From Deltaproteobacteria bacterium (GTDB taxonomy: Bacteria; Desulfobacterota; Desulfobulbia; Desulfobulbales; JAJRZW01): 64,000 nt of DNA. The position numbers were made by a program, and so were the translations under genes. Shown here one piece after another: positions 1,553 through 59,189 of the stretch (its first letter is position 1; each line of letters starts with the position of its first letter). The notes under the pieces were generated by a model. The model was not told the DNA's origin. It saw only the letters and a program-made list of their open reading frames with translations, and did no database searches. Location of the stretch: assembly GCA_024275015.1 (NCBI GenBank), contig JAJRZW010000009.1:22500-86499 (forward strand), read 5' to 3'.

Positions 1553-2881
1553 ATGACCAAAAAAGACATCCTCAAAATCGTGGAAGAAGAAAACGTCAAC
1601 TTCTTCCGCCTGCAGTTCGCCGATGTGTTAGGGAACATGAAGAATATCGCCATTCCCCGGAGCCAGATCGAAAAGGCCCTGGACGGACAGATGATGTTCG
1701 ACGGCTCTTCGATCAACGGCTTCGTTGACATCGACGAGAGTGACATGTACCTGAAACCGGACTACGACACATTCACCGTCCTTCCCTGGCGGAACAAGGA
1801 CGGGGTTGCCGCGGCCCGGATCATCTGCGACATCCACCTCCCCGATGGATCCCCCTTTGCCGGCTGCCCCCGCAACAACCTCAAGCGGGTTCTGGCCGAG
1901 GCAAAAAAGATGGGATACACCATGAACGTCGGCACCGAGTGTGAATTCTTCCTGTTCAATAAGGACGATTTCGGCGATTCAACCACCGATACCAACGACA
2001 CCGCGGGTTACTTCAGCGTTGATCCCGAAGACCACGGCATCGACTGCCGCCGCGAGATCATCGAGACCCTGGAAAAAATGAATTACGAGATCGAGGCCAG
2101 TCACCACGAGGTCGCCGAGGGGCAGCACGAGATCAACTTCAAATACTCCGACGCCCTCACCGCCGCCGACAATACCATCACCTTCAAATGGGTGGTCAAG
2201 ACCATTGCCGCCAAATACGGTCTCCACGCCACCTTTATGCCCAAACCGGTCTTCGGCATAAACGGCACCGGGATGCACACCAACCAGTCGCTGTTCAACC
2301 TTGATGGCTCCAACGCCTTTTACGACAAAAAAGGTCCGCTTGAACTCTCCAAGACCGCTTATCAGTACATCGCCGGGGTCTACAAAAACGCCCGCGCCTT
2401 TGTCGCGGTGACCAACCCGACCGTCAATTCCTATAAGCGTCTGGTTCCCGGTTACGAGGCCCCCTGCTATGTCGCCTGGTCCGCGTCCAACCGCAGCGCC
2501 CTGATGCGAATTCCCGCCTCCCGGGGCATGGGTACCCGGGTCGAGGTTCGCTGCCCCGACCCCACCTGCAACCCCTACCTAGCCATGGCAATGATGCTCA
2601 ACGCCGGTCTCGACGGGATCAAAAACAACCTGACCCCGCCGCCCTCCACCGATGCCAATATCTTCGCCATGACCGAGGGCCAGATGCGCCGGGCCAAGAT
2701 CAAAAGCCTCCCCGGCAACCTCCGCGAGGCCTTGGACGAACTCAAGAAAAGCAAACTCGCCCGCGAGACCATGGGCGAACACATCTTTGATAAATACATC
2801 GCCAACAAGGAAAAGGAATGGGATAATTTCCGCATCGCGGTGACCGACTGGGAGATCGAAAACTACCTCGATCTCTATTAA
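1553..2881 (+). CDS. glnA: Glutamine synthetase, type I
   Basis: ORF 1454..2881; ATG at 1553 preceded by AGGAGAGG. GS motifs FRLQFADVLG, NGTGMHTNQS, NSYKRLVPGYEAP. Confidence 0.93.
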   Translation: MTKKDILKIVEEENVNFFRLQFADVLGNMKNIAIPRSQIEKALDGQMMFDGSSINGFVDIDESDMYLKPDYDTFTVLPWRNKDGVAAARIICDIHLPDGSPFAGCPRNNLKRVLAEAKKMGYTMNVGTECEFFLFNKDDFGDSTTDTNDTAGYFSVDPEDHGIDCRREIIETLEKMNYEIEASHHEVAEGQHEINFKYSDALTAADNTITFKWVVKTIAAKYGLHATFMPKPVFGINGTGMHTNQSLFNLDGSNAFYDKKGPLELSKTAYQYIAGVYKNARAFVAVTNPTVNSYKRLVPGYEAPCYVAWSASNRSALMRIPASRGMGTRVEVRCPDPTCNPYLAMAMMLNAGLDGIKNNLTPPPSTDANIFAMTEGQMRRAKIKSLPGNLREALDELKKSKLARETMGEHIFDKYIANKEKEWDNFRIAVTDWEIENYLDLY

Positions 2882-3032
2882 CAGTCCGTTGAAAAACAGG
2901 CTGGTCGCGGCTGATGTCCGCGCCGCCGATTTTGCCGGATTGAAAAAACCGATGAAATCGAGAGGTTGGCCGGAACTTGTTTTGGCCAACCGGAGAGAAA
3001 AAGTCAGAACGACTTTTTCAACGGCCTGTTAA
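2878..3032 (+). repeat. Family A structured repeat (MITE-like), copy A1, full length
   Basis: Starts TTAACAG and ends CTGTTAA. Five hairpins. Its TAA (2879-2881) is the glnA stop codon. Confidence 0.85.
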
Positions 3033-3067
3033 CATCCAGATGTAACCAAAGCGCAGCAACCCGAAAA

Positions 3068-3104
3068 CCGTCCCCGGAAGCGTACGCCCGGGGGCGGTTT
3101 TTTT
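3068..3104 (+). terminator. Rho-independent terminator of glnA
   Basis: CCGTCCCCGG / CCGGGGGCGG stem (one G-T pair) followed by T7. Confidence 0.7.
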
Positions 3105-3491
3105 ATCCCGGAACCAAGCCATGAAACCCTTCGCGGCTAACGAGTCCGTATTAGAAATCTTCCGGGCAACAGACACCCTCTGTAAGCGAGAGCTTTTTGC
3201 TCAGGTATTTATTTTTCAGTTTCCCACTCCGGCCCCCCCTGTGTCAGAACAACAGATGTCGGCCTGTGATGACAGGACTTTGGCCTGACCGCTGAAATCC
3301 CAGGCACCCTGCGGGCTTCCTCCATTTCAGCAGCCGAATGACACGTACAGAGAGATGATGATTTTTCTGATCATCCTGTTTCTTTACCCAATGCCCGGGG
3401 TGCCAATTTCAGGTTGTCATTCCGACCGCCTGTGCTTTCCCCGCTGTGTCAGGTACTCAAGCGCGAAAGACAATTCATTCCCACGGCGCAA

Positions 3492-4268
3492 TCAGACAAA
3501 CAACATCCAGCATATCCTCACCGCAGCCAGGGCGATGAAGCTGGCGAGTATCCGACGCAGGGTTATTATCGGCAGGCGGTGACTGGTAAGACCGCCAAGC
3601 CAGGTTGCGGCAGGAACGGTGAGCGCGATTGGCAGGACAAGGGCCCAGGCGATCTGGCCGGTTGCGGCCTTGGCGATGAAGGCCGCCAGGGTCGAGGCCA
3701 TTACGATGGCAAGGTTTGAGCCGATGGCAATCCGGCTGGGAATTTTAACAAATTTGGTCATCAGGGGGATGAGGATGAACGAGCCCCCCTGCCCAACCAT
3801 GCCGCCGCAGAGACCCACAGCCGTAGCGGTGATCACCGCCCGGAGACGACTGAAATCGATCCCGGCCGCGTCCGGATGTTCTTCCTCGTTTTTTACCGGG
3901 CAGCAGGTCATGATAGCGGCGGCAACGGCCAGAACCGCGAAAAGGGCCAACAGAACCCGGTTCGCGACCAAAACCGCGACCGCGCCGCCAATAGCGGCAG
4001 CGACAAAAATGGTCGCCCCCATCCACAGAGCGAGAGATGTCGATACCGCCTTGAAACGATTATGCACCAAAGTGCCGCTTACGCAGGCAATGAGTCCCTG
4101 GACGATAGTCAACCCGGCCACCACCCGCATCGACAGTGACGCGATACCGAAGAGCGGTGGGACAAAGAGAAGAAGCGGGGCCATGATGATCCCGCCACCG
4201 ATCCCCAATAGCCCGGAGAGATAGCCCACCACAACTCCGAGGACGCCGGTTAAGACAATGAGTTCCAT
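3492..4268 (-). CDS. TauE/SafE-family (sulfite exporter-like) membrane protein
   Basis: 258 aa, polytopic, Gly-rich TM helices (GLLGIGGGIIMAPLL). Confidence 0.7.
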   Translation of the reverse strand: MELIVLTGVLGVVVGYLSGLLGIGGGIIMAPLLLFVPPLFGIASLSMRVVAGLTIVQGLIACVSGTLVHNRFKAVSTSLALWMGATIFVAAAIGGAVAVLVANRVLLALFAVLAVAAAIMTCCPVKNEEEHPDAAGIDFSRLRAVITATAVGLCGGMVGQGGSFILIPLMTKFVKIPSRIAIGSNLAIVMASTLAAFIAKAATGQIAWALVLPIALTVPAATWLGGLTSHRLPIITLRRILASFIALAAVRICWMLFV

Positions 4269-4282
4269 CCCGTCCCGATCCT

Positions 4283-5335
4283 CTATACCACCCTGATTCC
4301 GACGCGCCCCTCGACTACCTCGCCGATGGCGGCCGCCGTCACCCCTGCGACCGTGAGTTCGGCAACCAGGGTCGCAGCATCTGCGGCGGCAAGCGACAAC
4401 AGCAACCCCCCTGAAGTCTGGGGATCGTAAAGCAATTCCTCCGCGCTTTTGCTCAGTCTGGTCTCGACCGCAAGCGGATACCCGGCAACCATGGCCCGGT
4501 TGGCCTTATTGCTGCCGGTGGTCTCACCCTTTTCATACATTTCAAGGGCTCCGGGATAAAAGGGCAGCTTCTCGTACTCGACCACCACCCCGGTTTTCGC
4601 CCCCAGGGCCACCTCAAGCAGATGGCCGAGGATCCCGAAACCGGTGATGTCAGTGCAGGCATGGATGTCGAAGTTAAGGGCAATATCCATCGCCTTGCCG
4701 TTTAAGGCCGCAATCTGCGGCAAAGTCTCGCGTTCGAGCTCGGCAAAAGGATATTTCCCGCTGCGCACAGCATTAAACAACACCCCGCTGCCAATGGCCT
4801 TGGTCAGGACAAGGACGTCACCAACCCGGGAACCAGCGTTGGTGATGATCTTTTCCGGATGCACCAACCCGTTGACACAGAGGCCGTATTTGGGCTCATC
4901 GTCGTCAACCGTATGACCGCCCACCAGAACCGCCCCGGCCTCGACCACCTTGTCGTGACCGCCCTTCAATATCTCCCGCAGTATCCCCATGTCGAGATGG
5001 CCGGCCGGGAACATCACCACATTTAAGGCGGTAAGGGGTATCCCGCCCATGGAATAGACATCGGAGATGGAATTCGCCGCCGCCACCTGGCCGAACCAAT
5101 ACGGGTCATCCACCGGCGGGGTGATAAAATCAATGGTGTTGATCATCGCCTGCTCATCGTTAAGCCGATAAACCGCAGCATCGTCAGCGGTCTCAATGCC
5201 GACGAGGAGGTTCTTGTCATCAGGGGGAGTTAGCCCTTTAAGCGCGTCCGACAGATCCGCCGGACCGATTTTGGCAGCTCAACCGCAGGTCCGGGCCAGC
5301 CCGGTCAGAGTTTTTTTCTTCCTGAAGATAGCCAT
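4283..5335 (-). CDS. selD: Selenide, water dikinase (selenophosphate synthetase), selenocysteine-containing
   Basis: ORF 4283..5146 continues upstream in frame through TGA (5279..5281) to ATG 5333..5335, with a GGAGGG SD. N-terminus is MAIFRKKKTLTGLARTCG-U-AAKIGPADL, so Sec sits 3 residues before the conserved Lys, where E. coli SelD has Cys17. 1053 nt = 351 codons. Confidence 0.9.
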
Positions 5336-5468
5336 ATCACCCTCCTTCACTATTGAATAATCCACCGAAACAACCAAAACAGCTGTCTCTCTTGATATAA
5401 AGATAACCAATGATTTAAATTAAATCAATCAGGAGAATCTATAAAGATCCGGCGGAGTCACTTGACGA

Positions 5469-7987: not shown

Positions 7988-8013
7988 CCGACCGTTTCTC
8001 CGCCGAGGTCATC

Positions 8014-8037
8014 ACCGTTTTTCAACGGTCTGTTTAA
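8014..8037. repeat. Solo family A end (hairpin H1 plus CTGTTTAA)
   Basis: ACCGTT-tttc-AACGGTCTGTTTAA. Confidence 0.5.
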
Positions 8038-24701: not shown

Positions 24702-25256
24702 ATGACTGATGCCGTAAAAGAAAAAAAAAGCCCGGCCTGGAAGGACTATGACGAGGCCCTGGGACATCTGGAAAAAGGTGAACTGAGCATGGCTGCCGCC
24801 GGTTTCCATAACGCCTTGAAAGACTTTGAGATGGAAAATGACGAAAAAGGCATCGCCAATGCCGCATCCCGGCTTGCCGACGTCTGTGTTGCAAAAAAAG
24901 ATTATTCCCTGGCGGTCGAGATGTTAGCGCGGGTGGAAAAAATCTGCGCCGCCGAGGATGACCATGTCAGCCTGATGTCGATTAAAAACAGACAGGCTTT
25001 CGCCCTGCGCAAGTCAGGCAACTACGAACGGGCAACAGCCCTCTATCTCGACCTCCTTGACACCTATCATACCTTTAACAACCCCGATGGCAGCATCAAA
25101 ATCCTTGAAGCCCTGTCTGAGACCTATGTCGATGCCGGCGACCTGCAGAAAGCGGCCGACGCCCTCAAAACCGCGGCCTCGATCCACCGCAATTTCGGTC
25201 ATAAACGCCACGCCTCCACCCTTGAAGAACGCGCCGCGGCAATTGAAGCAGGATAA
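24702..25256 (+). CDS. TPR-like helical repeat protein
   Basis: 184 aa helical repeat sequence. Confidence 0.5.
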   Translation: MTDAVKEKKSPAWKDYDEALGHLEKGELSMAAAGFHNALKDFEMENDEKGIANAASRLADVCVAKKDYSLAVEMLARVEKICAAEDDHVSLMSIKNRQAFALRKSGNYERATALYLDLLDTYHTFNNPDGSIKILEALSETYVDAGDLQKAADALKTAASIHRNFGHKRHASTLEERAAAIEAG

Positions 25257-25487
25257 CAACCCGTTTAAAAACGTAGCAAGCGCAGGCGGGGCAAGGAATA
25301 ATCCGGCGAGAAAGTACAGTTTACATGGGGTACCAGTCCGTTGAAAAACGGACTGGTCGCGGTGCATAGACGCACCGTCGATTTTATTGGGTTTGAAAAA
25401 TCCAATAAAATCGAGAGTTTGACCGGAACTCGTTTTGGCCAACCAGGAGTTAAAAAAGGCAGGACGGCTTTTTCAACAGTCTGGTAA
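25253..25487 (+). repeat. Family A composite: 21-nt A-type end (25253-25273), 59 nt of unrelated sequence, then full copy A2 (25333-25487)
   Basis: ATAACAACCCGTTTAAAAACG, then a full five-hairpin element ending CAACAGTCTGGTAA. Confidence 0.8.
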
Positions 25488-25902: not shown

Positions 25903-25915
25903 CTTACTTTTACCA

Positions 25916-26106
25916 GATGAAATCGTAACAAGTCTCCGCTCCGGCTTGAAACGACGATTTCCGGACGGCTGACGGCGGGCGGCTAAAATCCCGAACTCGG
26001 GCTATGCCCTCAAACATGCGAGTTTTCTTAACCCATCCCGCCGCCCGGCACTTTTTTCCCGGAAATCGTCGAAGACACCTTCGCGGGTAATTGTTACGAG
26101 ACTGTC
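25916..26106 (-). repeat. Family B foldback repeat, copy B2
   Basis: About 80% identical by eye to the reverse complement of B1. Lies between the dsrD stop and its terminator. Confidence 0.85.
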
Positions 26107-29051: not shown

Positions 29052-29207
29052 ATAACAGTCCGTTTAAAAACGGGATGGTCGCGGCGCATGGACGCGCCGC
29101 CGATTTTATTGGGTTTGAAAAAACCAATAAAATCGAGAGGTTGACCGGAACTTGTTTTGGCCAACCGGGAGTTGAAAAAGCCAGGACGGCTTTTTCAACA
29201 GTCTGAA
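29052..29207 (+). repeat. Family A repeat, copy A3, full length
   Basis: All five hairpins are perfect or near-perfect. Lies between two divergent promoter candidates. Confidence 0.85.
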
Positions 29208-29217
29208 CAAGCTGAGT

Positions 29218-29246
29218 TTGACAGCAATAATCTTTCAAGATATTCT
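29218..29246 (+). promoter_or_regulatory. Sigma-70-like promoter candidate for the CoADR-rhodanese gene
   Basis: TTGACA-17 nt-TATTCT on the plus strand, about 60 nt upstream of ATG 29310. Confidence 0.3.
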
Positions 29247-29309: not shown

Positions 29310-31034
29310 ATGAAAGTTCTCATTATCGGCGGGGTCGCCGCCGGCCCAAAGACCGCAAGCCGGCTCAAACGGATCATGCCCGGGGCGGAAATCACCATCA
29401 TTGACCGTGACAATCTCATCTCATACGGCGGCTGCGGCATCCCCTACTACGTCTCCGGCGATATCTCCGATGAAAAGGAACTGCGCAACACCAGTTTCCA
29501 CATGACCCGGGATGAAAAATTCTTCGCCCGCGCCAAAGGGGTGGAGGTACTTACCCGACTTGAGGCGACGGCAATTGACCGCAAGGCAAAAACGGTTCGG
29601 GTGAAGAACCTCGACAGCGGCGGGGAACGCGATCTTGATTACGACAAACTGGTCCTGACCACCGGAGCCCGGGCCCATGTCCTTCCGGTTGCCGGGGCCG
29701 ATCTCCCCGGGGTCTATACCGTAAGCGATCTCCACAAGGCGATCGCGATCAAGGAAGATCTCGCCCGGGGCAGGGTCGCGCGGGCGGTGGTTATCGGCGG
29801 CGGGGCCATCGGCATCGAGATGGCCGAGGCATTTGCCGACCTCTGGGGGGCTGAGACTTCTCTGATCGAATTCATGGATCAGCTTCTCCCCAACCTTCTT
29901 GATCGCCCCATGGCCCTGATGCTCAAAAACGCTATGGAGAGAAACGGGGTCAATATCCACACCGGCGAGGGGGTCAAAGAGATCATCGCCGATAACGACG
30001 GCCGGGCCGCGAAGGTTGTAACCGACCAGCACTCCATTGACTGCGACATAGTCATCATGGCCGCAGGCGTCCGCCCCCGGGATGGGCTGGCCCGGGACGC
30101 CGGTCTTCTCACCTCGCCCCGGGGCGGGATCGTAATCAACGAACGGATGCAGACCTCAGACCCCGACATCTACGCCGCCGGCGACTGCCTTGAACTTTCA
30201 CACCTGGTCACCGGCCGCAAGGGATACGCCCCCATGGGATCGCTTGCCAACCGCCAGGGCCGGGTGGTGGCCGATAATATCGCCGGACTCGCGCGGCGGT
30301 TCCCGGGTTATGTCGGCTCTTTTATAATGAAGGCGTTTGACGTCTGCGTCGGAGCCACCGGCCTGACATTCAGGGCGGCTAAGACAGACGGCCTCAATGC
30401 CGATTTTGTAATAACCGCGCAATCAGACCGGGCCCACTTCTTTCCCGAGCAAACGGTGATTCCCCTGCAGATGGTATTTGACCGCGACAGCCGCAGGGTT
30501 GTCGGCCTTCAGGGCTTCGGCCCCATGGGAGACGGGATCCTCGCCCGCATCGACGCCGCCTGCGGCCTCATCGCCCGAGGCGCGACCATTGACGAATTCA
30601 GCAACCTTGAAATGGCCTACGCCCCGCCGTTCGCCACCGCCCTTGACGCCTTAAACGCCACCGCTAACGCGGCCGACAATAAGGCCGCCGACCGCCTGCG
30701 CTACGTCTCCGTTGAAGACTTCATGGCCTGGATGGACGACATGGATTCCCGGCCCGACTGGATCGCCCTTGATATCCGCCACCCGGTGGAGGCGGAGCCT
30801 TTTGTAAAAAAATTCGGCGATCACTGGCTGGCAATTCCCTACATTGAGATGCGGGAAAGATGGGCTGAACTCCCCACTGATAAAGAGCTGCTCATCATCT
30901 GTGACGCCGGCACCAGATCATACGAAATCCAATGCCTGCTGGACAGCCGTCCGGAACCGTTCCGTAGTCTGGTTCTCGGCGGCGGTTTCAACTGCATCAG
31001 GCGTATTGGCGTCCCCTGGTGGCCGCAATCATGA
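29310..31034 (+). CDS. CoA-disulfide reductase/NADH oxidase-family flavoprotein fused to a C-terminal rhodanese domain
   Basis: GGVAAGPK FAD motif; redox Cys in SYGGCGIPYY; rhodanese loop CDAGTRS. Confidence 0.85.
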   Translation: MKVLIIGGVAAGPKTASRLKRIMPGAEITIIDRDNLISYGGCGIPYYVSGDISDEKELRNTSFHMTRDEKFFARAKGVEVLTRLEATAIDRKAKTVRVKNLDSGGERDLDYDKLVLTTGARAHVLPVAGADLPGVYTVSDLHKAIAIKEDLARGRVARAVVIGGGAIGIEMAEAFADLWGAETSLIEFMDQLLPNLLDRPMALMLKNAMERNGVNIHTGEGVKEIIADNDGRAAKVVTDQHSIDCDIVIMAAGVRPRDGLARDAGLLTSPRGGIVINERMQTSDPDIYAAGDCLELSHLVTGRKGYAPMGSLANRQGRVVADNIAGLARRFPGYVGSFIMKAFDVCVGATGLTFRAAKTDGLNADFVITAQSDRAHFFPEQTVIPLQMVFDRDSRRVVGLQGFGPMGDGILARIDAACGLIARGATIDEFSNLEMAYAPPFATALDALNATANAADNKAADRLRYVSVEDFMAWMDDMDSRPDWIALDIRHPVEAEPFVKKFGDHWLAIPYIEMRERWAELPTDKELLIICDAGTRSYEIQCLLDSRPEPFRSLVLGGGFNCIRRIGVPWWPQS

Positions 31035-31831
31035 CCCGGCCGCGAACGCTTAAATATTCCACCGCCGTCATCATTGCCTTCCTCGGCCTCTGTGTACCCA
31101 CGCCGGCCCCGGCCCTGGATGGCAAACTTAACATCAACACCGCCACCATTACCGAGCTTGACAGTCTGCCGTTTATCGGCAAAAACCGGGCCAGGGACAT
31201 CATCGGCCTGCGACAACGGCAGGGACACCTCTCAAAACCTGAAGATCTCCTCGCCGCGGGTTCCCTCGGCCCCCTGACCCTGGCGGCGATCAGTCCCTAT
31301 ATCCAATTCAAGGGGACAGACAGTCTCACCCGGAGCGGGCTTGAAAGTCACCGGACGATCATCACCCGTCCTGGGCAGGTAATGCTGCTTGCCGACCGGG
31401 AATTCTTTCCGGTCCTCTTCTCCCTGATCGGCTCGGCGCACCATTCCGTTGACGTGGGAATGTACCTGTTCAAACTTGGCAAGGGTAAGAACAATAAGAC
31501 CACAAGACTGCTGCGGGAAATGCGCCGGATCAGGGCCCGGGGGATAATGGTCAGGGTGATGCTGGAAGAGTCAGACTATAACGATAAACTCAACCATGAA
31601 AACCACCAGACCGCAACACGCCTCCGGCGGGCCGGAATCATGGTTAAATTCGACCGTCCCCGCCCCACGACCCACGTCAAGACAGTGGTAATTGACCGCC
31701 GTTACACCTTCCTCGGCAGCCACAATTTCACCAACTCCGCCCTGGGGCGTAACCACGAACTTTCCCTGCTGATCGACGACCGCACCCTCGCCGCACAGGT
31801 GAGCGATTATCTCGACGCCGTTTTCAGATAG
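31031..31831 (+). CDS. Secreted ComEA-like helix-hairpin-helix plus phospholipase D/nuclease (HKD) domain protein
   Basis: ATG 31031 overlaps the upstream stop (ATGA). Signal-like N-terminus; LNINTATITELDSLPFIG; HKD motif HVKTVVIDRRYTFLGSHN. Confidence 0.7.
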   Translation: MTRPRTLKYSTAVIIAFLGLCVPTPAPALDGKLNINTATITELDSLPFIGKNRARDIIGLRQRQGHLSKPEDLLAAGSLGPLTLAAISPYIQFKGTDSLTRSGLESHRTIITRPGQVMLLADREFFPVLFSLIGSAHHSVDVGMYLFKLGKGKNNKTTRLLREMRRIRARGIMVRVMLEESDYNDKLNHENHQTATRLRRAGIMVKFDRPRPTTHVKTVVIDRRYTFLGSHNFTNSALGRNHELSLLIDDRTLAAQVSDYLDAVFR

Positions 31832-31834: not shown

Positions 31835-31957
31835 TTAACAGACCTTTGACCAAAACAAGTTCCGGCCAACCTCTCGATTTCACCGGTTTTTTCAACCCGA
31901 CAAAATCAGCGGCGCGGACATCAGCCGCATACAGTCCGTTTTTCAACGGACTGTTAA
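31835..31957 (-). repeat. Family A repeat, copy A4 (lacks hairpin H5)
   Basis: TTAACAG at 31835 and CTGTTAA at 31951-31957. Lies between convergent genes. Confidence 0.8.
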
Positions 31958-31987: not shown

Positions 31988-34396
31988 TCACCTCTTCACT
32001 CTCCTTACCACCCGCACCACCCTGCGCCCGGATTTTGCCCCCCTTTTTTTCACCACCACCTTTCGCCGCCTGGGGGAAGCGCTGTTTTTCGCCTCCCCGT
32101 CTTTATGTTCATAGCCGCATCCAGCCCGGGGACAACGCAAGATCGTATTTTCCCCTTTTTTCTTTTCCACCAGAAACGGATGGCCGCAACGGCGACAACT
32201 GACGGCATGAGGACGGGACCAGGCCGTAAGACCGCAATCGTCCTCAGTGCAGATATAAAAGAGTCGACCGCTCCCGGTCCGATGCGGAATCACCGCGCCC
32301 AGGCCGCACAGGGGACAAAGCGGCAGGGCCATATTGTCGTCATCCTGAACCCCCCGGCATTCGGGATAGTCATGACAACGCCAGAAGCCGCCGTAACGAT
32401 ACCGCTGCCTGAGCATACTCCGGCCGCATTCAATGCAGACCACCGTTTTCTCCACCGCCGGAACCGCGGGTTCAGGCTCAGGCTCGGGTTCAGAGTCAAA
32501 CCCGGGGGACACGAGTTCCGCCATGACCTCGACGGACCAGTCGCCGTCATCATCACCTTCCCCCCCCGTCTCCGCACCAACCTCCGTCACCTGGGCCTGC
32601 TCTTTTTCTTCCACGGTCAACGGCGCCGGCGGAACCCCGGCGGCCTCCGTTCTCATGGCCCCGTCTTCCAATACCGGCGGCGCGATCTCTTCGCCACTGG
32701 TTTCAAAAGGCTCAGGCGGTGCCACGGCCTCGACCCCACCTTTAATAATTCGCCGCGATATCTGATGCTGTTCAAGATTAACCCGAACCATGGACTTTTT
32801 ACGGACCAGAACCCGACCATGGACAAAAAGGGTCTGATCAAACTGACTCACCGCCTCGGCCAGACGCTTACGGCCTTCGGCAACCTCGTGCACCGTCTGT
32901 TCAAGATAGGGAAGAAGGGACTGCGGAGGAAAACCGGGAAAGGCCCGGGAAAAACCACGCAACAGCATCTCAAACCTTGGCCGCAGGGAAAAACCCGCCC
33001 CCGGCGCGAGGACGAGATAATCAAGGTCCAATAACTGTTCCAGGGTCTGACAGCTTGCGCGATCGGCGTTGATACCCATATCAGCCATGAGTTCCCAGAA
33101 GTCAGGGAGGCCGAAACCTCCGCCGGCACCAGTCTCAGGCGTGACCCCGGCCCGACGGATGCTGATACCCATCCCCGGCTCAAGGGTAAACAAAACCGGC
33201 TCTGCCGCGTCTTCTCCTTCCCCGGCAATGGCGGTGGCAAACCCCGGGGCCAGACAACGACGCCCCCGGGCCCGAACCAAGGCGCCATCCACGGAAACCA
33301 GCTCAACCTGTACCACCTCCTCCTTAAGCGGCGGCATCTGCCAGGCCCGGGCCCTGGCATTTATAAGCCCCAGGATCTCCTTTTCTTCAAGGCTCATCCC
33401 CCCTGCCTCCGGGCCGGAAACCGGTAGAATTGCCGCGGCCGGAAAATCACGCCGGCAAAGGAAATCGGCACCGAATTCAGCCACAACCGCGGCCCGGACC
33501 GCCTCCACCAGCACCTCCAGGGGCGGGCAGGCGTCATAGCCCGGCGAAATCCAGGCAGTCCGACCATTACCGGCGGCAAGGCAGTCAACAACAAGCTGAA
33601 CCCGGGCCGGTGAAAGCCCGAATGTCTCCATGGCCGCAATGGTAAGCGCGGCAAGGGTCAGCGGCGGCGGCGGTTCAATCCCGCAGGTCTGCCGGTCAAC
33701 GGTCGATACCGTAAACGCCATTGTCGCCAGGACATCAGCGCATGCCACCGCCTTTTCCTCCCGGGGAAAGACGCCGGCAACAGTATGCCCCAACATCTCG
33801 GCAAGACGCCCCTCAAATACACCGGCCGCGGCGTCAAACTCGGCAAAAACCCCATACCCTGAATAACCGCCGCCTTCTACGGCGAGAAAATCGGCCATGG
33901 AAAATACCATTGCCACCGCGTTCAAGGAAAGAGGCAGACCTCCGGGACCACGGCCTGAACCGAGGGTACGCCGCAGATGAAATTGCAACTTACGCCCAAG
34001 CTCCCGCCGGGCAAGAACCGCCATGGGAACAGCGGCGCCTGATTCCTGTTCGTCAACCAACGCGGAGGCGATAAGTTCTGGAGACAGACCGGCAAGACGC
34101 AGTTTTTTCACTCGCCCGCCGCGCCATTGCCGCCCCAGAAATGACTCAAGCAGCCAGGTAAGGAATACTCCCTGCGCGTCAGGGGTAAAACAGAGACAGA
34201 CATCGTCACCACCGGCGACGACAAGACGGGCCAAATCTTTTTCCGCTTTCCCTGCGGCGGTAAAAACAAGCCCGTCTCCGGAGTAATCAACCATGACCGG
34301 GGCATCGTCGAACTCAACGTACTCCCGGACCAGGCCATGCGCCAACAGAGCTTCACCTACAACCGGGTTATCAACCGCTGCCAATTGAAAAGCCAT
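31988..34396 (-). CDS. Topoisomerase-IA-like protein with three C-terminal C4 zinc ribbons and a degenerate catalytic core
   Basis: Zn ribbons CIECG..CHDYPEC, CPLCG..CTEDDC, CRRCG..CPRAGC. Segments parallel to TopA (AVDNPVVGEAL vs VESPAKAKTI; FTPDAQG vs TDLDREG; PPPPLTLAALTIAAMETFGLS vs [20 protein letters not shown]). No YxRTDS active site. Confidence 0.55.
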   Translation of the reverse strand: MAFQLAAVDNPVVGEALLAHGLVREYVEFDDAPVMVDYSGDGLVFTAAGKAEKDLARLVVAGGDDVCLCFTPDAQGVFLTWLLESFLGRQWRGGRVKKLRLAGLSPELIASALVDEQESGAAVPMAVLARRELGRKLQFHLRRTLGSGRGPGGLPLSLNAVAMVFSMADFLAVEGGGYSGYGVFAEFDAAAGVFEGRLAEMLGHTVAGVFPREEKAVACADVLATMAFTVSTVDRQTCGIEPPPPLTLAALTIAAMETFGLSPARVQLVVDCLAAGNGRTAWISPGYDACPPLEVLVEAVRAAVVAEFGADFLCRRDFPAAAILPVSGPEAGGMSLEEKEILGLINARARAWQMPPLKEEVVQVELVSVDGALVRARGRRCLAPGFATAIAGEGEDAAEPVLFTLEPGMGISIRRAGVTPETGAGGGFGLPDFWELMADMGINADRASCQTLEQLLDLDYLVLAPGAGFSLRPRFEMLLRGFSRAFPGFPPQSLLPYLEQTVHEVAEGRKRLAEAVSQFDQTLFVHGRVLVRKKSMVRVNLEQHQISRRIIKGGVEAVAPPEPFETSGEEIAPPVLEDGAMRTEAAGVPPAPLTVEEKEQAQVTEVGAETGGEGDDDGDWSVEVMAELVSPGFDSEPEPEPEPAVPAVEKTVVCIECGRSMLRQRYRYGGFWRCHDYPECRGVQDDDNMALPLCPLCGLGAVIPHRTGSGRLFYICTEDDCGLTAWSRPHAVSCRRCGHPFLVEKKKGENTILRCPRAGCGYEHKDGEAKNSASPRRRKVVVKKRGAKSGRRVVRVVRRVKR

Positions 34397-42553: not shown

Positions 42554-42735
42554 ATGAAGTCGTAACAAATCCCCGTTCCGGCTGAAAACGACGATTTCCG
42601 GGCAACGGGCAGCGGGCTGCTGAAATCCCGAACTCGGGCTATACCCTCAACCATGCGGGATTTCTTAACCAATCCCGCCACCCGGCGCCTTTTCCGGAAA
42701 TCGCCGAAAACGCCTCCGCGGGCACTTGTTACGAG
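42554..42735 (-). repeat. Family B foldback repeat, copy B3
   Basis: GTCGTAACAAATCC...CACTTGTTACGAGG; same orientation as B2. Confidence 0.85.
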
Positions 42736-42799
42736 GCCAACAAAAATTAAAGAATGCAAAATATGAACCACTTCAGGCATCCATCTGAACGCTCACCCG

Positions 42800-42848
42800 G
42801 CGGCGCGGACATCTGCCCCTGGCAGTCCGTTTTTCAACGGACTGCTAA
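42800..42848 (-). repeat. Family A fragment A9 (hairpins H2 and H1 only)
   Basis: GCGGCGCGGACATC..GGCAGTCCGTTTTTCAACGGACTGCTAA. Confidence 0.65.
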
Positions 42849-42987: not shown

Positions 42988-45915
42988 TTACCCCTGAAGC
43001 AGAGACAGCACGTTCTTAGCGCTGGCATTGGCCTGGGCCATGGCAAAGGTGCTTGCCTGGGTCAGGATCTGCATCTTGGAGAAGGTGGATGCCTCTTCGG
43101 CAAAGTCAACGTCGCGAATGGTCGATTCAGCTGCGGTGATGTTGACCTTGGTGGCAGAGAGGTTGGAGATGGTGGAGTTCAGCTGGTTCTGCACCGAACC
43201 GATACCACTCCTGACCTTGTCAAGATCCTTCAGGGCAGCATCGGCAACCGAAATGGCGGTCTGGGCTCCATCCTGGGTAAGGACATTGACTTCGGACAGC
43301 CTGGTCATGGTCGAAGAACCGACCGTGCCAAGGGCGGTACCACTACCGGAGGTGTTGGCCGCGAGGGTGGTGCCGGCGGCAAGGATAGACCCACCCTTGA
43401 CATCCTGGGCATTGGTCATGGTGGTGGCGCTGGCAATGGTCACGGCACTGCTCAGGGTTGAACCGGAAGCGTAAGTGATGCCGTCAGTGCCGGTAATGGC
43501 GTTTGTGAGCACCGTGCCTTGGGCAAAGACACTGCCGGCCGCGACACTGGAGTTAGCTGCCAGGTTCATGGTGCTGCCGGCGCCCACGGTCTCGGCATTG
43601 GCCAGGGTGATGGTGGCGCCAAAGGTGGAGCCGGTGGCAAGGGCGGAACCGTCACCTATCTTGGAACCAATCGCCAGGGACTGGGTATTGGTGATGGTGG
43701 CGTCAGCAGTAAGGGTAAGGTCATTACTGGCGGCGCTTGAACCGTTGGCGAAAACACTCCCAACGATCACCGAAGTTCCCGTTGCCAGGTTCATGGCCGC
43801 GCCCAGGGTGGCGTCGGCGGCAAGGACAAGGGCGTCGGTATCCGCGACCGATTCCGCCGCCAGCACGGAATTAGCGGCAATGGTGGTCCCTCCGTGGGTG
43901 GTCATATTCGCGGTTAACTGGAGATCACCGTGAAGGGTAAAGGCGTCGTTGGCGCCAACGGTATTGGCGGCAAGGGTTGAACCGGTCTCGATCTGCTAAC
44001 CGGTGAGCAGGGTCATGGTTCCGCCGCTGACAGTGAGATCCCTGACCGTCACGTCATCATTGGCCACATAGGAACCAGCCTTGAGAACCGAGCCGGACTG
44101 AAGGTCAATCCCGCTGGGCAGGGTTGATATTTCCCCGGTCAGGGTAAAGGCGCCGCCACCAGCCGTGGTGACACCGGAACCATTGCCGCCGAAGCTCAGG
44201 GTCCAGATCCCGGCGCCAGTAGTGATCGCACCGCCGGCACTGAGATGACTAAGGGCCGCAGTGGCGTCGGCGGCAGTATTGAACACCGTGCCGCTGACCA
44301 GGGTCGAACCGGTGGCGATGACCGAACCGGTTGCGATCAAACCGCCGCCAGCGCCAAAATTGGCCTGATCACCGGCGGCAATGGTGGCACTCCCCTGGAT
44401 TACCGTGCCGGAATTGAGGATCGTGCCGGAAAGCAGAATGGAACCGCTGCCGACCGTCACGTTGCCCGTAGTACTCTTTCCCGAAACCACGATATCAGAA
44501 GTAATGGTGGTCCCAGAACCGATAACCGTACCCGACTGCAGGATTGAACCAGTCGCCGCCACCAGGGTCGCCCCACCGTTAACGACGGTGGAGCCAACGG
44601 TGATATCAGAGGTGACGGAGGTGCCGGTGGCAAGCGAAGTGCCGGAACGAAGAACCGAGCCGGCCCCGGCGACAGTAGCGCCTGAGGTGGTGAAGGCGGC
44701 CACGGTCATATTATTGCTGATCGCCGTGCCGGAATTCAAAACCGTGCCGCTGCCGAGGGTGGACCCGGCGGCGATACTGGACACCACGGTGGTGGCACTC
44801 GTGGTGCCGCTGGTCTCAAGATCGTTGGAAGTGGAGACCGCAAGCCCGGTATCACCAGAATTGGAGATGGTGATCTCCGCGGCCCCGGTCTGGGTAAGCT
44901 TTATCACCCCGAGGGTGCTCATGTCGGTCTGCCCCAAAATGGCATTGACCCCGGTATTGGTGCCGTTGGTAATACTTGTACCGGTAAGCTTGATCGCCCG
45001 ACCGTCAGTAGACGTCAAGGTCAGCTTGCCGGAGACATCGACACTGGCAAAGACCCCGGTATCAGAACTTTTGAGGTTGATCGACTTAACCAGCGAACCG
45101 TCAGAGTCATTTGCCTTAACCGATATCTGACCGATGGTGATACCGTTGATGGCAAAATCGGAATCGGTTGTTCCGGCGGAAACGGCACTTGAGGTGGTTG
45201 AAGTAACCACCGCCTCAGAAGAAATTCCCAGAACGTCGCTCAATTTGTTAATCGCGTCGGAAACCGCCCCAAGGCTGTTCTCGCGATTATTGTTATAGGA
45301 AATATCAATACTGTTAATGTCATAGGTGGCATCCTGAACATTACTGTAGAGACTCAACTGGGCACTCCCGGTGCCGCTGAAAGAAAGCTGCGATGTGTTG
45401 ACATGACCGACCTTGTTTGATTCGGCCGAGGCGATGGAGATACTGACGGTCTCGTGAGAATAAGCGCCGATCTGCATCTGCTTGTTGGTAAACTGACCGG
45501 ACAGGAGTTTCTGGCCGTTAAAGGCCGTGGTCTTGGCGATATTATCCAGTTCCGCCAACAACTTGTCGATGTCCGACTGAATCGCCTTGCGGGACTCGGT
45601 GGTCTGACCGTCCTGGGCCGCCTGAATCGCCTTGGTCTTGATGGTATTGACTATATTAATCGATTCATCCAAGGCACCATCAGCGGTCTGGACCATGGAA
45701 ATACCATCGTTGGCGTTCCTGATTGCCTGCCCCAGACCAAGGGACTGGGACTTGAGTGAATCGGCAATGGCCATGCCGGAAGCGTCATCAGCCGCCTTAT
45801 TGATCCGCAGCCCTGATGAGAGTTTCTCAAGCGATGCCGAAAGGCCCGCGTCGTTTCTCGCCATACTCCTGTGCGCCGTCAGAGCGGCAATATTGGTGTT
45901 GATTCGCAGTGACAT
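42988..45915 (-). pseudogene. fliC: Giant flagellin (~974 codons) interrupted by a single in-frame TAG at 43996..43998
   Basis: ORF 43996..45933 carries only the flagellin N-domain (MSLRINTNIAAL.., ATG 45915, GGAGGA SD). ORF 42988..43905 carries only the C-domain (..QNQLNSTISNL..NVLSLLQG). They share a frame, and the 30 codons between them are open. Confidence 0.85.
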
Positions 45916-46204
45916 GTTTAATCCTCCATCCATGTTAGGTTAACAGGGGCGTCCGTGCCCCAAAAAAAGGTTAAAAAAACAATGCGCATTATCCCCGTAT
46001 ACCAATCACCTCCTTTCCCTGCAGATTTTTCAGACAACGACCCGACTTCGTCGTACCTGTGACCTGAATGCCACCCCGCGCAGAGGAGATGGCCGGAATC
46101 GCCTTCATAAGACCGCCTAAAAGAACCGCCGATGAGCCATCAAAAAAGTACCTGAACCGGTTCCACGATGACGCGACACAACATCTTCTCCCGCTTACCC
46201 TGCC

Positions 46205-50235: not shown

Positions 50236-50340
50236 TTGTCAAACCGTTGAAAAAGCCGTCAACGGCTTTTTCAACTCCGGTCGGCCAAAACAAGCTCCGG
50301 CCAATCTCTCGATTTTATTGGATTTTTCAACAGACTGTCA
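50236..50340 (-). repeat. Family A repeat, copy A5 (internally deleted)
   Basis: H5 and H4 are intact, and H3 is truncated onto a terminal TTTTTCAACAGACTG. Its last 3 nt are the TGA of the upstream radical SAM gene. Confidence 0.75.
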
Positions 50341-51798
50341 GGACGCCTTCCTGAACCTCTTGCTCTCAAAATGACGTGCGCCGCGGAATTTCGTTTCACC
50401 TCTGAAATAAAGATTATGAAATTTTTCAATCATCGCGTGGGCTTTGTCCATGTCGCCACCGACATGCTCAAAATAGTCAAGGATAAGCTCCCGGTTGGCC
50501 GCGAACAACAGGCCATAGAATTCCTCATCGCTGAGGCTGGTGAAGTTCACGGTAAGCAGGTCAGAGTTGACGAATTTATCAAAAAAGTCCCCAGGCCCGG
50601 CGAGAAGCCCCTTCTTTATGGCGTAATGGTACAGTTCGCAACCGGGGAAAGGGGTTATCGGCCTTATGGTCCGCAGCTCATTGTAGCTCTGGAATTTCTT
50701 GATGAAATCAACACTTCTGCGAAGAGTCTCGGCGTTGTCACTCATGATGCCCCAGATAAAATTTATCCCCATTGGCACCCCGTGCTTTTTCATCAGGGTC
50801 GCGGTGGTAAAATTATCGGTTACCGTGGTGTTCTTCCTGAAATCATCGAGGCATTCCTGGGTGACAGATTCAAAGCCGACATTAACATAGCAGCAACCTG
50901 AATCCTTCAACAGCACCGCGAGTTCATCGGTGGCGATATTGGCCCGAATCCCGGCGTTTATATTGTATTTGATCTTACCCATAAGGCCGCTTTCCCGTAA
51001 TCCTGCCACGAACTCCCGCAACCGGTCCACCGAGGCGATAAAAACCTCGTCCTGGAGGGCAAAATAAGTCACCCCGTAATCCTCGTATAATTGCTTCATC
51101 TCGGCCAAGACATTGTCAATACTGCGGAAACGAACGCCTTTCTCCATCCGGTAACAGAAAGTGCAGCGGTTTACGCATCCCCTGCCGGTCAGGATCTGAA
51201 TCGCCTTTTCATCATCACCCTGAAGGTGATACTGCATATTGGTGGTGTATATATCCATGGGGAACATATCCCAGGCCGGAAAAGGTATCCTGTCTATCTT
51301 CATGATCGGGGCACGCCGCTTATTGCGTCTGATCCGACCTTCCCCGTCCCGATAGACTATGCCCCTAACGGTTGTAAGATCCCTGCCGCCGGTAACGGCG
51401 TCAAGAAGATCAACCACGGTTTCCTCCGCCTCGCCCACCGCGACGATATCCGCCATACTATTGGCAAGGATATACTCCGGCTCCGAGGATGGCCCGTGGC
51501 CACCGAAGACAATCCGGGCGTTTTTCTTGTGGGCGTGAACGACCTCGCACAGTCCCGTAACCGTTTCCCTGAACCTCGCGGCCAGAAAACCGATACCTAT
51601 CAGGTCGTACTCTTTGTCCATCAGGTACTTTTCCACCACCTCGTCATTACTGTAATGATAGATATCCTGACAGCATATCGTCACCTCCGCCCCCTCCTCA
51701 CGCAGAACCGAGGCGAGATACGCCACCCCGAGGGGGAACTGATTATCTTCCTGGTAAACATCATGAACGATAAACAAAACCCTGCCCTTAGCCGCCAT
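50338..51798 (-). CDS. B12-binding-domain radical SAM enzyme
   Basis: N-terminal cobalamin-binding-like domain; CVNRCTFC cluster motif. Confidence 0.85.
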   Translation of the reverse strand: MAAKGRVLFIVHDVYQEDNQFPLGVAYLASVLREEGAEVTICCQDIYHYSNDEVVEKYLMDKEYDLIGIGFLAARFRETVTGLCEVVHAHKKNARIVFGGHGPSSEPEYILANSMADIVAVGEAEETVVDLLDAVTGGRDLTTVRGIVYRDGEGRIRRNKRRAPIMKIDRIPFPAWDMFPMDIYTTNMQYHLQGDDEKAIQILTGRGCVNRCTFCYRMEKGVRFRSIDNVLAEMKQLYEDYGVTYFALQDEVFIASVDRLREFVAGLRESGLMGKIKYNINAGIRANIATDELAVLLKDSGCCYVNVGFESVTQECLDDFRKNTTVTDNFTTATLMKKHGVPMGINFIWGIMSDNAETLRRSVDFIKKFQSYNELRTIRPITPFPGCELYHYAIKKGLLAGPGDFFDKFVNSDLLTVNFTSLSDEEFYGLLFAANRELILDYFEHVGGDMDKAHAMIEKFHNLYFRGETKFRGARHFESKRFRKAS

Positions 51799-56136: not shown

Positions 56137-56148
56137 CAAGGCCTCCTG

Positions 56149-56230
56149 TATCAGACCGTTGAAAAAGCCGTCCATGGATTTTTCAACTTCGGTTGGCCAA
56201 AACAAGTTCCGGCCAACCTCTCGATTTCAC
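56149..56230 (-). repeat. Family A repeat, copy A6 (H5-H4 half)
   Basis: CAGACCGTTGAAAAAGCC..GGTTGGCCAAAACAAGTTCCGGCCAACCTCTCGATTTCAC. Confidence 0.75.
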
Positions 56231-56281
56231 CAGATCATCTGGTTGCAAAATCCGTCCTGGCCTTTGCAACCAGATGATCTG
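56231..56281. repeat. Perfect 19-bp inverted repeat with a 13-nt loop
   Basis: CAGATCATCTGGTTGCAAA-atccgtcctggcc-TTTGCAACCAGATGATCTG. Contains the stop codon and the last ~15 codons of the CMP-sugar synthetase ORF. Confidence 0.8.
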
Positions 56282-56951
56282 CGAAAATATACTTCTTCAT
56301 TGCGGCCTCCGCGATTACCCAGTCGTCAATATCATCAATGTCAAGCGCTGAATATTCAGGCATTTCATATATCTTTATCCTGCCGCACAGCCTGTTTCCA
56401 TTTTTCACAAAACCGCCAACGGTATTAATATAGAAAGCTCCATTTTCCATAAGCTCTCCCTCTATCTCTTGTCTTCTTGGACGAAACCTGTAGTCGTAAT
56501 TAACGGGAGAACCGTCTTCGTTCCATAAAAACACCTTAAGCCTCGCGCAGGAGAGCAATGAATCACATCCGCTTTCACGATATCCGGCCAGGGCACCTTC
56601 AAGATCGACCGTTCTGATCAGGGGATTTGTCGCCTGCGCCAGGATAAAAACGTCATCATCGTCGAAGTCATGTCTACCGAGAAATTCAAGAACAACGCTC
56701 TCGGTTGAAGAATGATCCTGCGCGTTTGCCGCATCCCTCATGTATACCTTCACCTTGTCGAGGGCAAACCCCTCGACCACGCTCCTGATCTCGTCGCAAT
56801 CAGTGGCCGCATAGACCGCATCGATCCCCGATACCGCTGAAAGCGCCCGCAGAGCCCAGAAAACCAGCGGCCTCCCGCAGAATTCTTTTATATTCTTCAT
56901 CGGAATCGACTTGCTGCCGCATCTGAGCGGCACAAAAGCTATGGTCTTCAT
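56235..56951 (-). CDS. Acylneuraminate cytidylyltransferase family (CMP-nonulosonic acid synthetase)
   Basis: AFVPLRCGSKSIPMKNI N-terminal motif; 238 aa. Confidence 0.85.
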   Translation of the reverse strand: MKTIAFVPLRCGSKSIPMKNIKEFCGRPLVFWALRALSAVSGIDAVYAATDCDEIRSVVEGFALDKVKVYMRDAANAQDHSSTESVVLEFLGRHDFDDDDVFILAQATNPLIRTVDLEGALAGYRESGCDSLLSCARLKVFLWNEDGSPVNYDYRFRPRRQEIEGELMENGAFYINTVGGFVKNGNRLCGRIKIYEMPEYSALDIDDIDDWVIAEAAMKKYIFADHLVAKARTDFATR

Positions 56952-56978: not shown

Positions 56979-57135
56979 TTAACAGACTGTTGAAAAAGCC
57001 GTCCTGGCTTTTTCAACTCCCGGTTGGCCAAAACAAGTTCCGGCCAACCTCTCGATTTCACTGGTTTTTTCAACCCGGTGAAATCGGCGACGCGTCCGTG
57101 CGCCGCGACCAGCCCGTTTTTCAACGGGCTGTTAA
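56979..57135 (-). repeat. Family A repeat, copy A7, full length
   Basis: TTAACAG at 56979 and CTGTTAA ending at 57135; all five hairpins present. Confidence 0.9.
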
Positions 57136-57332: not shown

Positions 57333-58075
57333 TCACCCCTCGAAACCGATGAACCGGCGGCGTCCGAAGAGACGGATAGCAATGAGGCCGATCTCGTAAA
57401 GGACCACGAGGGGCGCGGCCATGAGGAACTGGTTAACAATGTCCGGGGTCGGGGTCACCACCGCGGCGATAACAAAGGCGGCCAGCACCGCGTATTTTCT
57501 CCCGGCAGCCAGTTTTTTCACGTCAGCCAGACCGATCTTGGCGATAAAGACCATGACAATGGGGAGTTCAAATACAAAGCCGAAAGCGATGAGCAACCGC
57601 AGACACAGAGAGAAATACTCCTTCACTGCCGGCATTACCCTTAAACCGTCGCCGGAATAGCTGCTCAGAAACTTGAACGCCGGCGGGAAAACGACAAAAT
57701 AAGCAAAGAGGTTGCCGGATATAAAACAGAAGACGGAAAGGAGGATGAAGGGAAGAAAGACCTTGCGTTCATTTTTATAAAGACCAGGGGCAACAAAACG
57801 CCATGCCTGATGAATTATAACCGGCGAGGCGATGAGGATGCCGCCGGCAAGGGCAAGTTTCAGATAAAAAAAAAGGCCTGCTGATAAGAGTTGAAGATAA
57901 TCTTCGAGCCTTCGGGAAGAACCCGGGCCAGGGGAAGAAAGAGCCAATCGGCAAGCTCACGCGAGTAATTGTAGCAAATCCCGAAGCCCGCCGTCACCGC
58001 GATCAGACTCTTGATCAGGCAGTTGCGCAAGTCGCGCAGATGTTCAGTCAGGGCCTGTTTTTCAAACTCTTCCAT
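57333..58075 (-). pseudogene. tatC: Twin-arginine translocase subunit TatC; frame broken by a -1 shift in a T9 run (coding strand) at 57866..57874
   Basis: ORF 57860..58075 (N-terminus) and ORF 57333..57947 (remainder, ..IASPVIIHQAWRFVAPGLYKNERK..) join as ..QQAFFF-YLKLALAGG.. when shifted -1 in the run. Confidence 0.8.
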
Positions 58076-59036: not shown

Positions 59037-59189
59037 CAGCCCGTTGAAAAACTGACTGTACGCGGCTGATGTCCGCGCCGCCGATTTTGCCGGGTTGAAA
59101 ACCCCGGTGAAATCGAGAGGTTGACCGGAACTTGTTTTGGCCAACCAGAGTTAAAAAAGCCATGGACTGATTTTTCAACACTCTGTTAA
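59033..59189 (+). repeat. Family A repeat, copy A8, full length
   Basis: TTAACAG at 59033 (its TAA is the stop of the 58191 gene) and CTGTTAA ending at 59189. Confidence 0.9.

Follow-up and report, generated by a model that had tools for sequence, protein, structure and literature searches.

A five-hairpin mobile repeat family from a Desulfurivibrio relative, with a fold apparently kept by compensatory mutation

The bcr1 repeats of the Bacillus cereus group resemble miniature inverted-repeat transposable elements (MITEs): they are mobile, non-autonomous, transcribed intergenic elements of about 155 bp with short direct repeats (Delihas, 2011; PMC3184786). Their RNA structure is maintained by compensatory base-pair changes, and some copies no longer form a stable structure (PMC3184786). 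These repeats are the closest described case to family A, a repeat present in nine copies (five full and four partial), plus smaller fragments, in 64,000 nucleotides of a Deltaproteobacteria contig (JAJRZW010000009.1, positions 22,500 to 86,499; this whole 64-kb stretch is called the window below). A compensatory pattern is, accordingly, already known for some bacterial MITEs. The two repeats are alike in size, mobility, direct repeats, a compensated fold and decay in some copies. They differ in sequence, which is unrelated, in the phylum of the host, and in the flanking repeat, which is 5 bp in bcr1 and a 4-bp NTAN in family A. Furthermore, transcription has been demonstrated for bcr1, whereas that of family A is presumed.

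Other well-known families share the general format. ERIC/IRU, Correia/NEMIS and BOX/RUP/SPRITE are also short non-coding intergenic repeats with predicted stable RNA hairpins and with modular or deletion variants (general knowledge; PMC3184786). Their sequences are unrelated to that of family A. These elements, from enterobacteria, Neisseria and pneumococcus, respectively, are often co-transcribed with their neighbors and can affect mRNA stability or processing; Correia elements duplicate TA, and BOX lacks terminal inverted repeats of the family A kind. To our knowledge, no element of the ERIC, Correia or BOX type has been described from Desulfobulbales, and none with a five-hairpin plan. The REP/BIME sequences (RAYT, IS200/IS605-like) are abundant extragenic palindromes with compensated stems, located at gene 3′ ends and with effects on mRNA stability. 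REPs are single palindromes of 20–40 nt that carry a conserved 5′ tetranucleotide, lack terminal inverted repeats and a duplication, and are handled as single-stranded DNA. In contrast, family A is about 150 nt long, with five hairpins, terminal repeats and a 4-bp duplication, and the presence of the latter two rules out REP/RAYT and IS200/IS605-type origins. No description of this repeat family was found in the literature searched.

In the reading favored here, which is given a probability of roughly 0.6, family A is a MITE mobilized by an IS5-type transposase, and its fold is kept as RNA at the 3′ ends of genes through selection between element lineages. The window has a G+C content of 56%, and its genes include dsrAB, ATP sulfurylase, glnA and flagellar genes. 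Its DsrB is 83–85% identical to those of Desulfurivibrio species, which points to a sulfate-reducer-like Desulfurivibrio relative as the host. The exact DsrB sequence had no recorded match, and this host is absent from the collections searched. Relatives of the repeat were fished from metagenome contigs with the exact H1 palindrome CAGYCCGTTGAAAAACGGRCTG, giving 47 loci, about 31 of which hold full-length copies. Together with the window copies they form four host-specific subfamilies, listed here with copy A3, which serves as the reference:

Subfamily W: the window copies and L087
Subfamily G: about 26 copies from one metagenome
Subfamily R: L085, L100 and L121
Subfamily D: L084, L095, L106 and L109
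29056 to 29205, plus strand: copy A3, full element from CAG to CTG, within the 156-nt stretch 29052 to 29207
29056 to 29077: hairpin H1 of A3
29081 to 29100: hairpin H2 of A3
29101 to 29135: hairpin H3 of A3
29139 to 29166: hairpin H4 of A3
29171 to 29199: hairpin H5 of A3
On either side of A3: flanking 4-mers ATAA and AACA, a degenerate duplication

A contig of subfamily G (L081, metagenome Ga0114931) is syntenic over positions 1715–3806 with window positions 3507–5346 at 75–79% nucleotide identity; thus, the G host is related to the window host. Other searches returned little. The exact pattern AAATCGAGAGnTTGrCCGGArCTyGTTTTGG, the invariant core of the window copies, had no match in genome and metagenome collections because the H4 of the relatives differs, and a BLAST search of one copy against plasmids (PLSDB) gave chance matches only. 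Among the dsrAB loci of 80 related genomes, family A was found only as one H1–H2 module, in a metagenome-assembled genome of Desulfobulbia (L026, 3361–3412), where it stands downstream of dsrB-dsrD, past a terminator-like hairpin.

All subfamilies share the same five-hairpin minimum-free-energy fold, with stems of 9 bp (H1), 7–8 bp (H2), 13–15 bp (H3), about 12 bp (H4) and about 12 bp (H5) and with loops GAAA in H1, AUGGAC in H2, mostly CUUG in H4 and AUGGA in H5. The five hairpins had been proposed in the original prediction, and A3 indeed folds in this way on either strand (z = -6.4 on the plus strand and -7.4 on the minus strand). Between subfamilies, the stem sequences of H2, H3 and H4 are largely different and the pairing is kept. 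For example, the H2 stem reads GCGGCGC/GCGCCGC in W and G, GCGGCCC/GGGCCGC in R and GCGAAAC/GTTTCGC in D; the module in L026, with GCGGCAC/GTGCCGC, presents another compensated pair, G-C to A-T relative to A3. H1 and H5, which overlap the terminal repeats, are nearly constant in sequence. The unpaired, purine-rich linker between H3 and H4 (e.g., window 29136–29141) is nearly invariant, reading GAGAGG in W and G, GUGAGG in R and GGGAGG in D. This linker resembles a Shine-Dalgarno sequence; no conserved start codon follows it.

The compensatory character of these differences was quantified by counting pairs on a structure-free MAFFT alignment with the five-hairpin structure written by hand, and the count was repeated on a covariance-model alignment. 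Pairing extends to 93.0% of stem cells in the MAFFT alignment as against 86.3% after shuffling, and 24 of the 55 pairs show double changes (15.0±2.1 when shuffled; 0/500 shuffles reach the observed value); the covariance-model alignment gives 95.3% and 28/55. The covariation score amounts to 0.232 (MAFFT) and 0.247 (model-fitted), compared with 0.11–0.12 for shuffles and 0.04–0.08 for slid partners. Unaided, RNAalifold recovers H1, most of H3 and H4, and three of the seven H2 pairs, and 22 of its 35 pairs are compensated. In the model-fitted alignment, compensated pairs are concentrated in H3 (14/15) and H4 (9/12), followed by H2 (3/7), H1 (1/9) and H5 (1/12); H1 and H5, in which the terminal repeats lie, are constrained in sequence. 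Comparison of subfamily consensus sequences leads to the same picture. Between G and D, which are 54% identical in their stems, there are 18 pair-keeping double changes, no single change and four breaks. All comparisons with D yield 16–18 pair-keeping doubles, 0–2 single changes and four breaks, and the remaining consensus comparisons behave in the same way. Independent substitution would yield more single than double changes, and the reverse is seen. Taken together, these data support the view that the five hairpins have been kept by compensatory mutation, with selection on a folded single strand.

Within the window itself, the family is represented, besides A3, by the following copies and fragments, some of them placed with respect to an open reading frame (ORF):

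2882 to 3028, plus strand: copy A1, full, duplication TTAA/TTAA; the 5′ duplication contains the TAA stop (2879 to 2881) of glnA (ORF 1454 to 2881); H2 is of "variant b"
8013 to 8032, minus strand: solo H1-like hairpin or terminal-repeat fragment (CAGACCGTTGAAAAACGGTG on the minus strand)
25334 to 25483, plus strand: copy A2, full, flanks GTAC and GTAA, 3′ of ORF 24702 to 25256
31839 to 31953, minus strand: internal-deletion derivative, H1–H4 followed by the 3′ terminus GGTCTG, without H5, TTAA/TTAA, 3′ of minus-strand ORF 31988 to 34396
42800 to 42844, minus strand: H1–H2 module alone (H2 variant b), TTAG on the 5′ side, downstream of flagellin-like ORF 42988 to 43905
50240 to 50337, minus strand: deletion derivative, terminal repeat CAGTCTGTTGAAAAA joined to the H3 loop and 3′ arm, then H4 and H5, beginning immediately past the TGA stop of ORF 50338 to 51798
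56146 to 56287, minus strand: variant copy with another long 5′ hairpin (CAGATCATCTGGTTGCAAA.../...TTTGCAACCAGATGATCTG), then the conserved linker, H4 and H5
56983 to 57131, minus strand: full copy, probably A7 of the original prediction, TTAA/TTAA, between a tatC-like gene (57333 to 57947) and ORF 56235 to 56951, both on the minus strand
59037 to 59185, plus strand: copy A8, full, TTAA/TTAA, H5 decayed; the 5′ duplication contains the stop codon of ORF 58191 to 59036
59190 to 59225, after A8: two more 3′-end fragments
60460 to 60497, plus strand: fragment consisting of H5 and the 3′ terminus only (GTGAAAAGCCATGGACGGCTTTTCCAACGGCCTG)

The original prediction was built on a handful of these copies, and the stem changes it described are all present. 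In H2, GCGGCGC/GCGCCGC of A3 becomes GCGGTGC/GCACCGT in A2, a C-G to T-A replacement that none of the other copies, 40 in all, shares; the stem of A2 is further closed by a G·T pair that had gone unmentioned. H3 reads GATTTTATTGG/CCAATAAAATC in A2 and A3, with 11 Watson-Crick pairs, and GATTTTGCCGGG/CCCGGTGAAATC in A8, where two T-A pairs have become C-G and T·G and G·T wobbles have appeared. In H5, GCC/GGC of A3 is replaced by GTC/GAC in A1 and in no other copy. From these examples, selection on the folded form had been suggested, which was reasonable but under-powered. With the six alignable window copies alone, covariation above chance was not found: stems are 91.6% paired versus 90.7±0.5% in partner shuffles (110/2000 reach it), double changes occur at four pairs versus 2.8±1.2 expected (529/2000 shuffles reach it), and G·U and A·C cells number 13 and 10. 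Several stem changes in the window copies are uncompensated, e.g., the A·C that three copies share at a single pair of H4, and the H2 and H3 differences track subfamily lines, so that few independent events are represented. The proposed test, covariation on an alignment of further copies, comes out in favor of the claim only once the 30 or more metagenome relatives are added to those of the window, at which point no shuffle in 500 reaches the observed values.

The weak signal of the window raises the question of whether any selection is needed. Palindrome-restoring template switching or gene conversion, combined with descent from a few master copies, could in principle produce coupled changes, and template switching is an established source of such changes in hairpins. 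The chance-level covariation among window copies, the subfamily lines that account for the H2 and H3 differences, and resident copies that gain pair-breaking changes at nearly the loop rate would all be expected from such a process. Template switching, however, yields perfect Watson-Crick arms; it would erase a G·U pair held by 36 of 40 copies and would leave no excess of G·U over A·C (both described below). Nor does it explain why five hairpins hold their lengths and positions through 46% stem divergence, why pair-keeping double changes far exceed single or breaking ones between the most distant subfamilies, or why the GAAA, GGA and CUUG loops are conserved while the stems turn over. An origin without selection is thus considered very improbable. 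The earlier statement that the pattern is not that of neutral decay holds between lineages, whose stems are compensated; it does not hold for individual inserted copies, which do decay.

Which strand folds can be judged from the mismatches that the stems tolerate. Over all copies, the non-Watson-Crick stem cells comprise 102 G·U and 21 A·C when read on the H1-to-H5 strand. At one pair of H4, 36 of 40 copies have G·U, which would read A·C on the other strand, and the remaining copies have A-U or G-C. Counting distinct types reduces the asymmetry to 27 versus 13 (p = 0.04), and among singletons the ratio of 12 to 8 is not significant. As RNA, the H1-to-H5 strand is predicted to be the more stable one in 34 of 35 copies (-76.8 vs. 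-67.2 kcal/mol). The strandedness had been left open in the original prediction because A7 carries a wobble on the opposite strand. Such a wobble is present (the minus-strand copy at 56983–57131, probably A7, has a C·A, i.e., a G·T on the other strand), and the evidence from the whole family now leans clearly toward the H1-to-H5 strand. RNA appears more likely than single-stranded DNA as the folded form.

The anatomy of family A, which the original prediction had missed, is that of a MITE. From CAG to CTG, the element measures 147–154 nt in 36 full copies; it contains no reading frame, and its interior consists entirely of hairpins. Its ends are 15-nt imperfect terminal inverted repeats, the left being CAGyCCGTTGAAAAA and the right the reverse complement of CAGACTGTTGAAAAA, which match at 13 of 15 positions and are conserved in every subfamily. 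Of 34 complete copies, 24 have identical flanking 4-mers and 31 have 4-mers that agree at no fewer than three positions, compared with a mean of 5.8 and a maximum of 13 identical flanks in 10,000 permutations of the right flank. The duplication has the motif NTAN and is mostly TTAA, TTAG, CTAA or ATAA. Thirteen of the identical flanks are non-palindromic (TTAG, ATAA, CTAA, GTAG, ATAG, TTAT, CTAT); therefore, they are direct duplications and not part of an inverted repeat. An IS630-type TA duplication is ruled out, since the two flanks change together at the outer bases of the 4-mer.

The target-site duplications generated by IS5 are 4 bp long and follow the motif YTAR (PMC5009759). Family A is similar in the length of its duplication and in its 5′ flanks, of which 22/34, i.e., two thirds, are of the YTAR type (TTAA, TTAG, CTAA, CTAG). 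The remaining third (ATAA, GTAG, ATAG, TTAT) lies outside YTAR and fits NTAN. By its sequence features, family A is a MITE with an IS5-like target site, a likeness that rests on the length and motif of the duplication. The terminal repeats may resemble the ends of the IS5 family as well.

Mobility is also reflected in derivatives and in one occupied site. Three deletion derivatives (31839–31953, L092 and 50240–50337) retain both ends; the first lacks H5, and L092 consists of H1, H2 and H5 only. The motif TTGAAAAA occurs three times per element and holds two of the deletion-derivative junctions. In L118 (1319–1451, minus strand), an element of about 105 nt has the same terminal repeats and a TTAG/TTAG duplication around an unrelated interior; a single transposase seems to move more than one cargo. 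A family A copy in L081 is located between two genes whose window orthologues stand 14 nt apart without an element, and the intergenic regions are too different for base-level alignment. Two further repeats were observed. A solo 22-nt H1 hairpin with flanks CTAG and CTAC is found on high-G+C contigs in L101, L120 and L127 (e.g., L127 166–187), directly followed by a tandem hexamer CCCGTG present 5–6 times, and has the appearance of a footprint or of a minimal end-to-end element. A second MITE-like repeat, about 185 nt long and with no sequence relationship to family A, has inverted ends (TCGTAACAA ... TTGTTACGA) and two copies that are 84% identical, at 25910–26100 downstream of dsrD and at 42555–42740 downstream of fliD.

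The same anatomy bears on the possibility that the hairpins are needed as single-stranded DNA or as cruciforms for mobilization. Recognized by the transposase or by a host factor, they would then be selected for transposition efficiency and not as RNA. Such a role would agree with the overlap of H1 and H5 with the terminal repeats and with covariation that lies mostly between propagating lineages, which is where a cis-requirement for transposition would appear. The strand asymmetry, moreover, persists with DNA parameters, and G·T is the best tolerated DNA mismatch. On the other hand, a fixed 4-bp duplication with terminal inverted repeats is the mark of duplex cut-and-paste by DDE enzymes, which normally involves the ends only. 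The unrelated interior of L118, together with the ends and duplications kept by derivatives lacking H3 and H4 or lacking H5, indicates that the internal hairpins are not obligatory for insertion. The stability asymmetry is also four times larger with RNA parameters, and a role in mobilization leaves the orientation bias relative to genes unexplained. This DNA-level explanation is regarded as unlikely, with more in its favor than an origin without selection.

The orientation bias concerns the position of the copies behind genes. In 12 copies, the TAA or TAG within the 5′ duplication is the stop codon of an upstream ORF on the same strand, and the mirror (antisense) arrangement is found in two. 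Insertion at a TAA or TAG stop, followed by duplication, restores the stop codon. In the window, eight of nine copies lie directly 3′ of a co-oriented ORF, and they do so on both DNA strands; thus, the orientation of a copy follows the local gene and not the chromosome arm. The dsrAB locus is flanked by family A, with A2 past its 3′ end and A3 upstream of dsrA. A3 is located between two divergent promoter-like sites (29035–29007, minus strand, and 29218–29246, plus strand), both of which consist of TTGACA, a 17-nt spacer and TATTCT and are symmetric about A3. One faces dsrA and the other a CoA-disulfide-reductase-like gene, and the spacer that separates the two sites is apparently where A3 was inserted.

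In the favored reading, that of an RNA fold at gene 3′ ends, an IS5-type DDE transposase would move family A in trans, and the inserted element would usually be transcribed together with the upstream gene, whose 3′ end it would form. The hairpins would fold in this read-through RNA, on the H1-to-H5 strand. Lineages of the element in which the fold is kept would leave more descendants, and single resident copies would then slowly decay. A possible reason is that a compact, stable RNA makes insertion behind a gene harmless or useful. Possible uses include protection of the 3′ end or a protein-binding platform formed by the conserved GGA loops.

Several observations weigh against this reading. 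Regarding mobilization, a search of the window, of 127 loci and of the PLSDB plasmids revealed no autonomous element with matching ends, only isolated ends or chance matches. Regarding the RNA, folding at this level is something we infer, and DNA parameters favor the same strand in 31 of 35 copies (-48.9 vs. -46.5 kcal/mol, a difference of 2.4). A3, between divergent promoter-like sites, may not be transcribed at all, and among metagenome copies in tandem contexts, the ratio of 13 sense to seven antisense, based on crude ORF calls, is about 2 to 1. H5 as an intrinsic terminator is ruled out by a terminator scan, which does not call it because its T run belongs to the stem. H2 is called terminator-like in window-type copies only, and these calls arise by chance from the T-rich H3 arm of such copies. 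The exact H1 bait makes the conservation of H1 uninformative and leaves copies with a diverged H1 out of the collection. Finally, selection is faint in resident copies. The 26 copies of subfamily G approach a star phylogeny, and their rare substitutions per column per copy amount to 0.020 in stems versus 0.029 outside. Of 44 stem events, 17 lead to G·U, six to A·C and 16 to other mismatches, so that half break the pair; four are double compensations, three of which belong to a single copy, L098, apparently from a separate lineage. Constraint on resident copies is thus weak or absent. Since inserted copies decay, selection is seen mainly between propagating lineages, where the fold could matter for the success of a lineage, either in transposition as such or by affecting what becomes of new insertions.

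The conserved loops suggest a more specific function. In the H2 loop, 27 of 40 copies carry AUGGAC and subfamily D carries AGGAU, with AAGGAU also among the subfamily forms; GGA is present in 36 of 40 copies (the exceptions are ATGTCC in three and ATAGAC in one) and in all four subfamilies despite replacement of the stem. In H5, most W, G and R copies carry AUGGAG, AUGGAC, AGGAC or AGGGAU, and D lacks GGA. The motifs CAGGAUG and CAGGACG agree with the repeat of CsrB, which reportedly reads CAGGA(U/C/A)G. A permissive 301-nt search aligned the best-preserved copy, L087, over the full length of the Rfam model RsmW (RF02809, clan CL00106) at 38.2 bits (E 3.8e-5), with the H2 and H5 loops on the GGA hairpins of the model. 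Family A could therefore consist of dispersed CsrA/RsmA-type binding modules whose insertion brings a transcript under CsrA control or whose copies titrate the protein. The GGA loops of H2 in all four subfamilies and of H5 in three of four, the hairpin loops in register in L087, and the retention of exactly H1, H2 and H5 in L092 are consistent with this idea.

The resemblance has its limits. The score against RsmW falls short of the gathering score of 52 and was obtained for one copy only, which rules out RsmW membership; A3 and two cut-off G-subfamily copies in L096 gave no RsmW match, the window gave no Rfam match at gathering thresholds, and a permissive Rfam search over ten loci gave none either, so that the L087 match depends on lax filters. 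GGA is missing from the H5 loop of D and from the H2 loop of three window copies, and in a loop of 5–6 nt it is fairly probable by chance. Sponge RNAs of the CsrB/Rsm type (e.g., RsmW) have several hairpins with GGA loops, typically with more than the two GGA motifs found per family A element. Such a sponge is a single regulated small RNA gene, whereas family A is mobile, multi-copy and bounded by target-site duplications, and neither a promoter nor a terminator of its own was identified in it. No csrA gene was found in the window and collected loci, which says nothing about the host genome as a whole. Binding modules of this kind are a rather improbable explanation of the family, and the GGA loops and the RsmW-like match are best treated as a lead toward CsrA-type binding, not a finding. 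The broader idea that a mobile element spreads CsrA/RsmA-type binding hairpins, either rewiring regulation gene by gene through stop-codon insertion or forming a dispersed protein sponge, is a long shot. If it were true, the compensatory evolution of family A would preserve the presentation of the GGA loops.

Two neighboring genes deserve mention in their own right. The flagellin seems to be split, with a 645-aa ORF (43996–45933, minus strand) covering the N-terminus and middle, a 305-aa ORF (42988–43905, minus strand) covering the C-terminus, and internal 42-nt repeats at 44278–44775; a frameshift, a pseudogene or two genes could account for this arrangement. In the ORF at 31019–31831 (plus strand), a ComEA-like helix-hairpin-helix region is joined to a phospholipase-D-like domain; the latter resembles DISARM DrmC with a score of 77 bits, which does not reach the cut-off of 133.

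Family A is, as far as the literature searched shows, a new MITE family in Desulfurivibrio-like sulfur-cycling bacteria, distinguished by its five-hairpin plan, its NTAN duplication and its insertion at stop codons. It offers an unusually clear case of a MITE whose interior, and not the ends alone, appears to have been held in shape across host lineages. This makes it a good model for asking what the fold of a MITE is for, be it 3′-end protection, protein binding or transposition. The family also has practical consequences for work on these organisms. It breaks metagenome assemblies, as many copies lie at contig ends, and it marks the 3′ ends of genes, so that the transcriptomes of such hosts are to be read accordingly.

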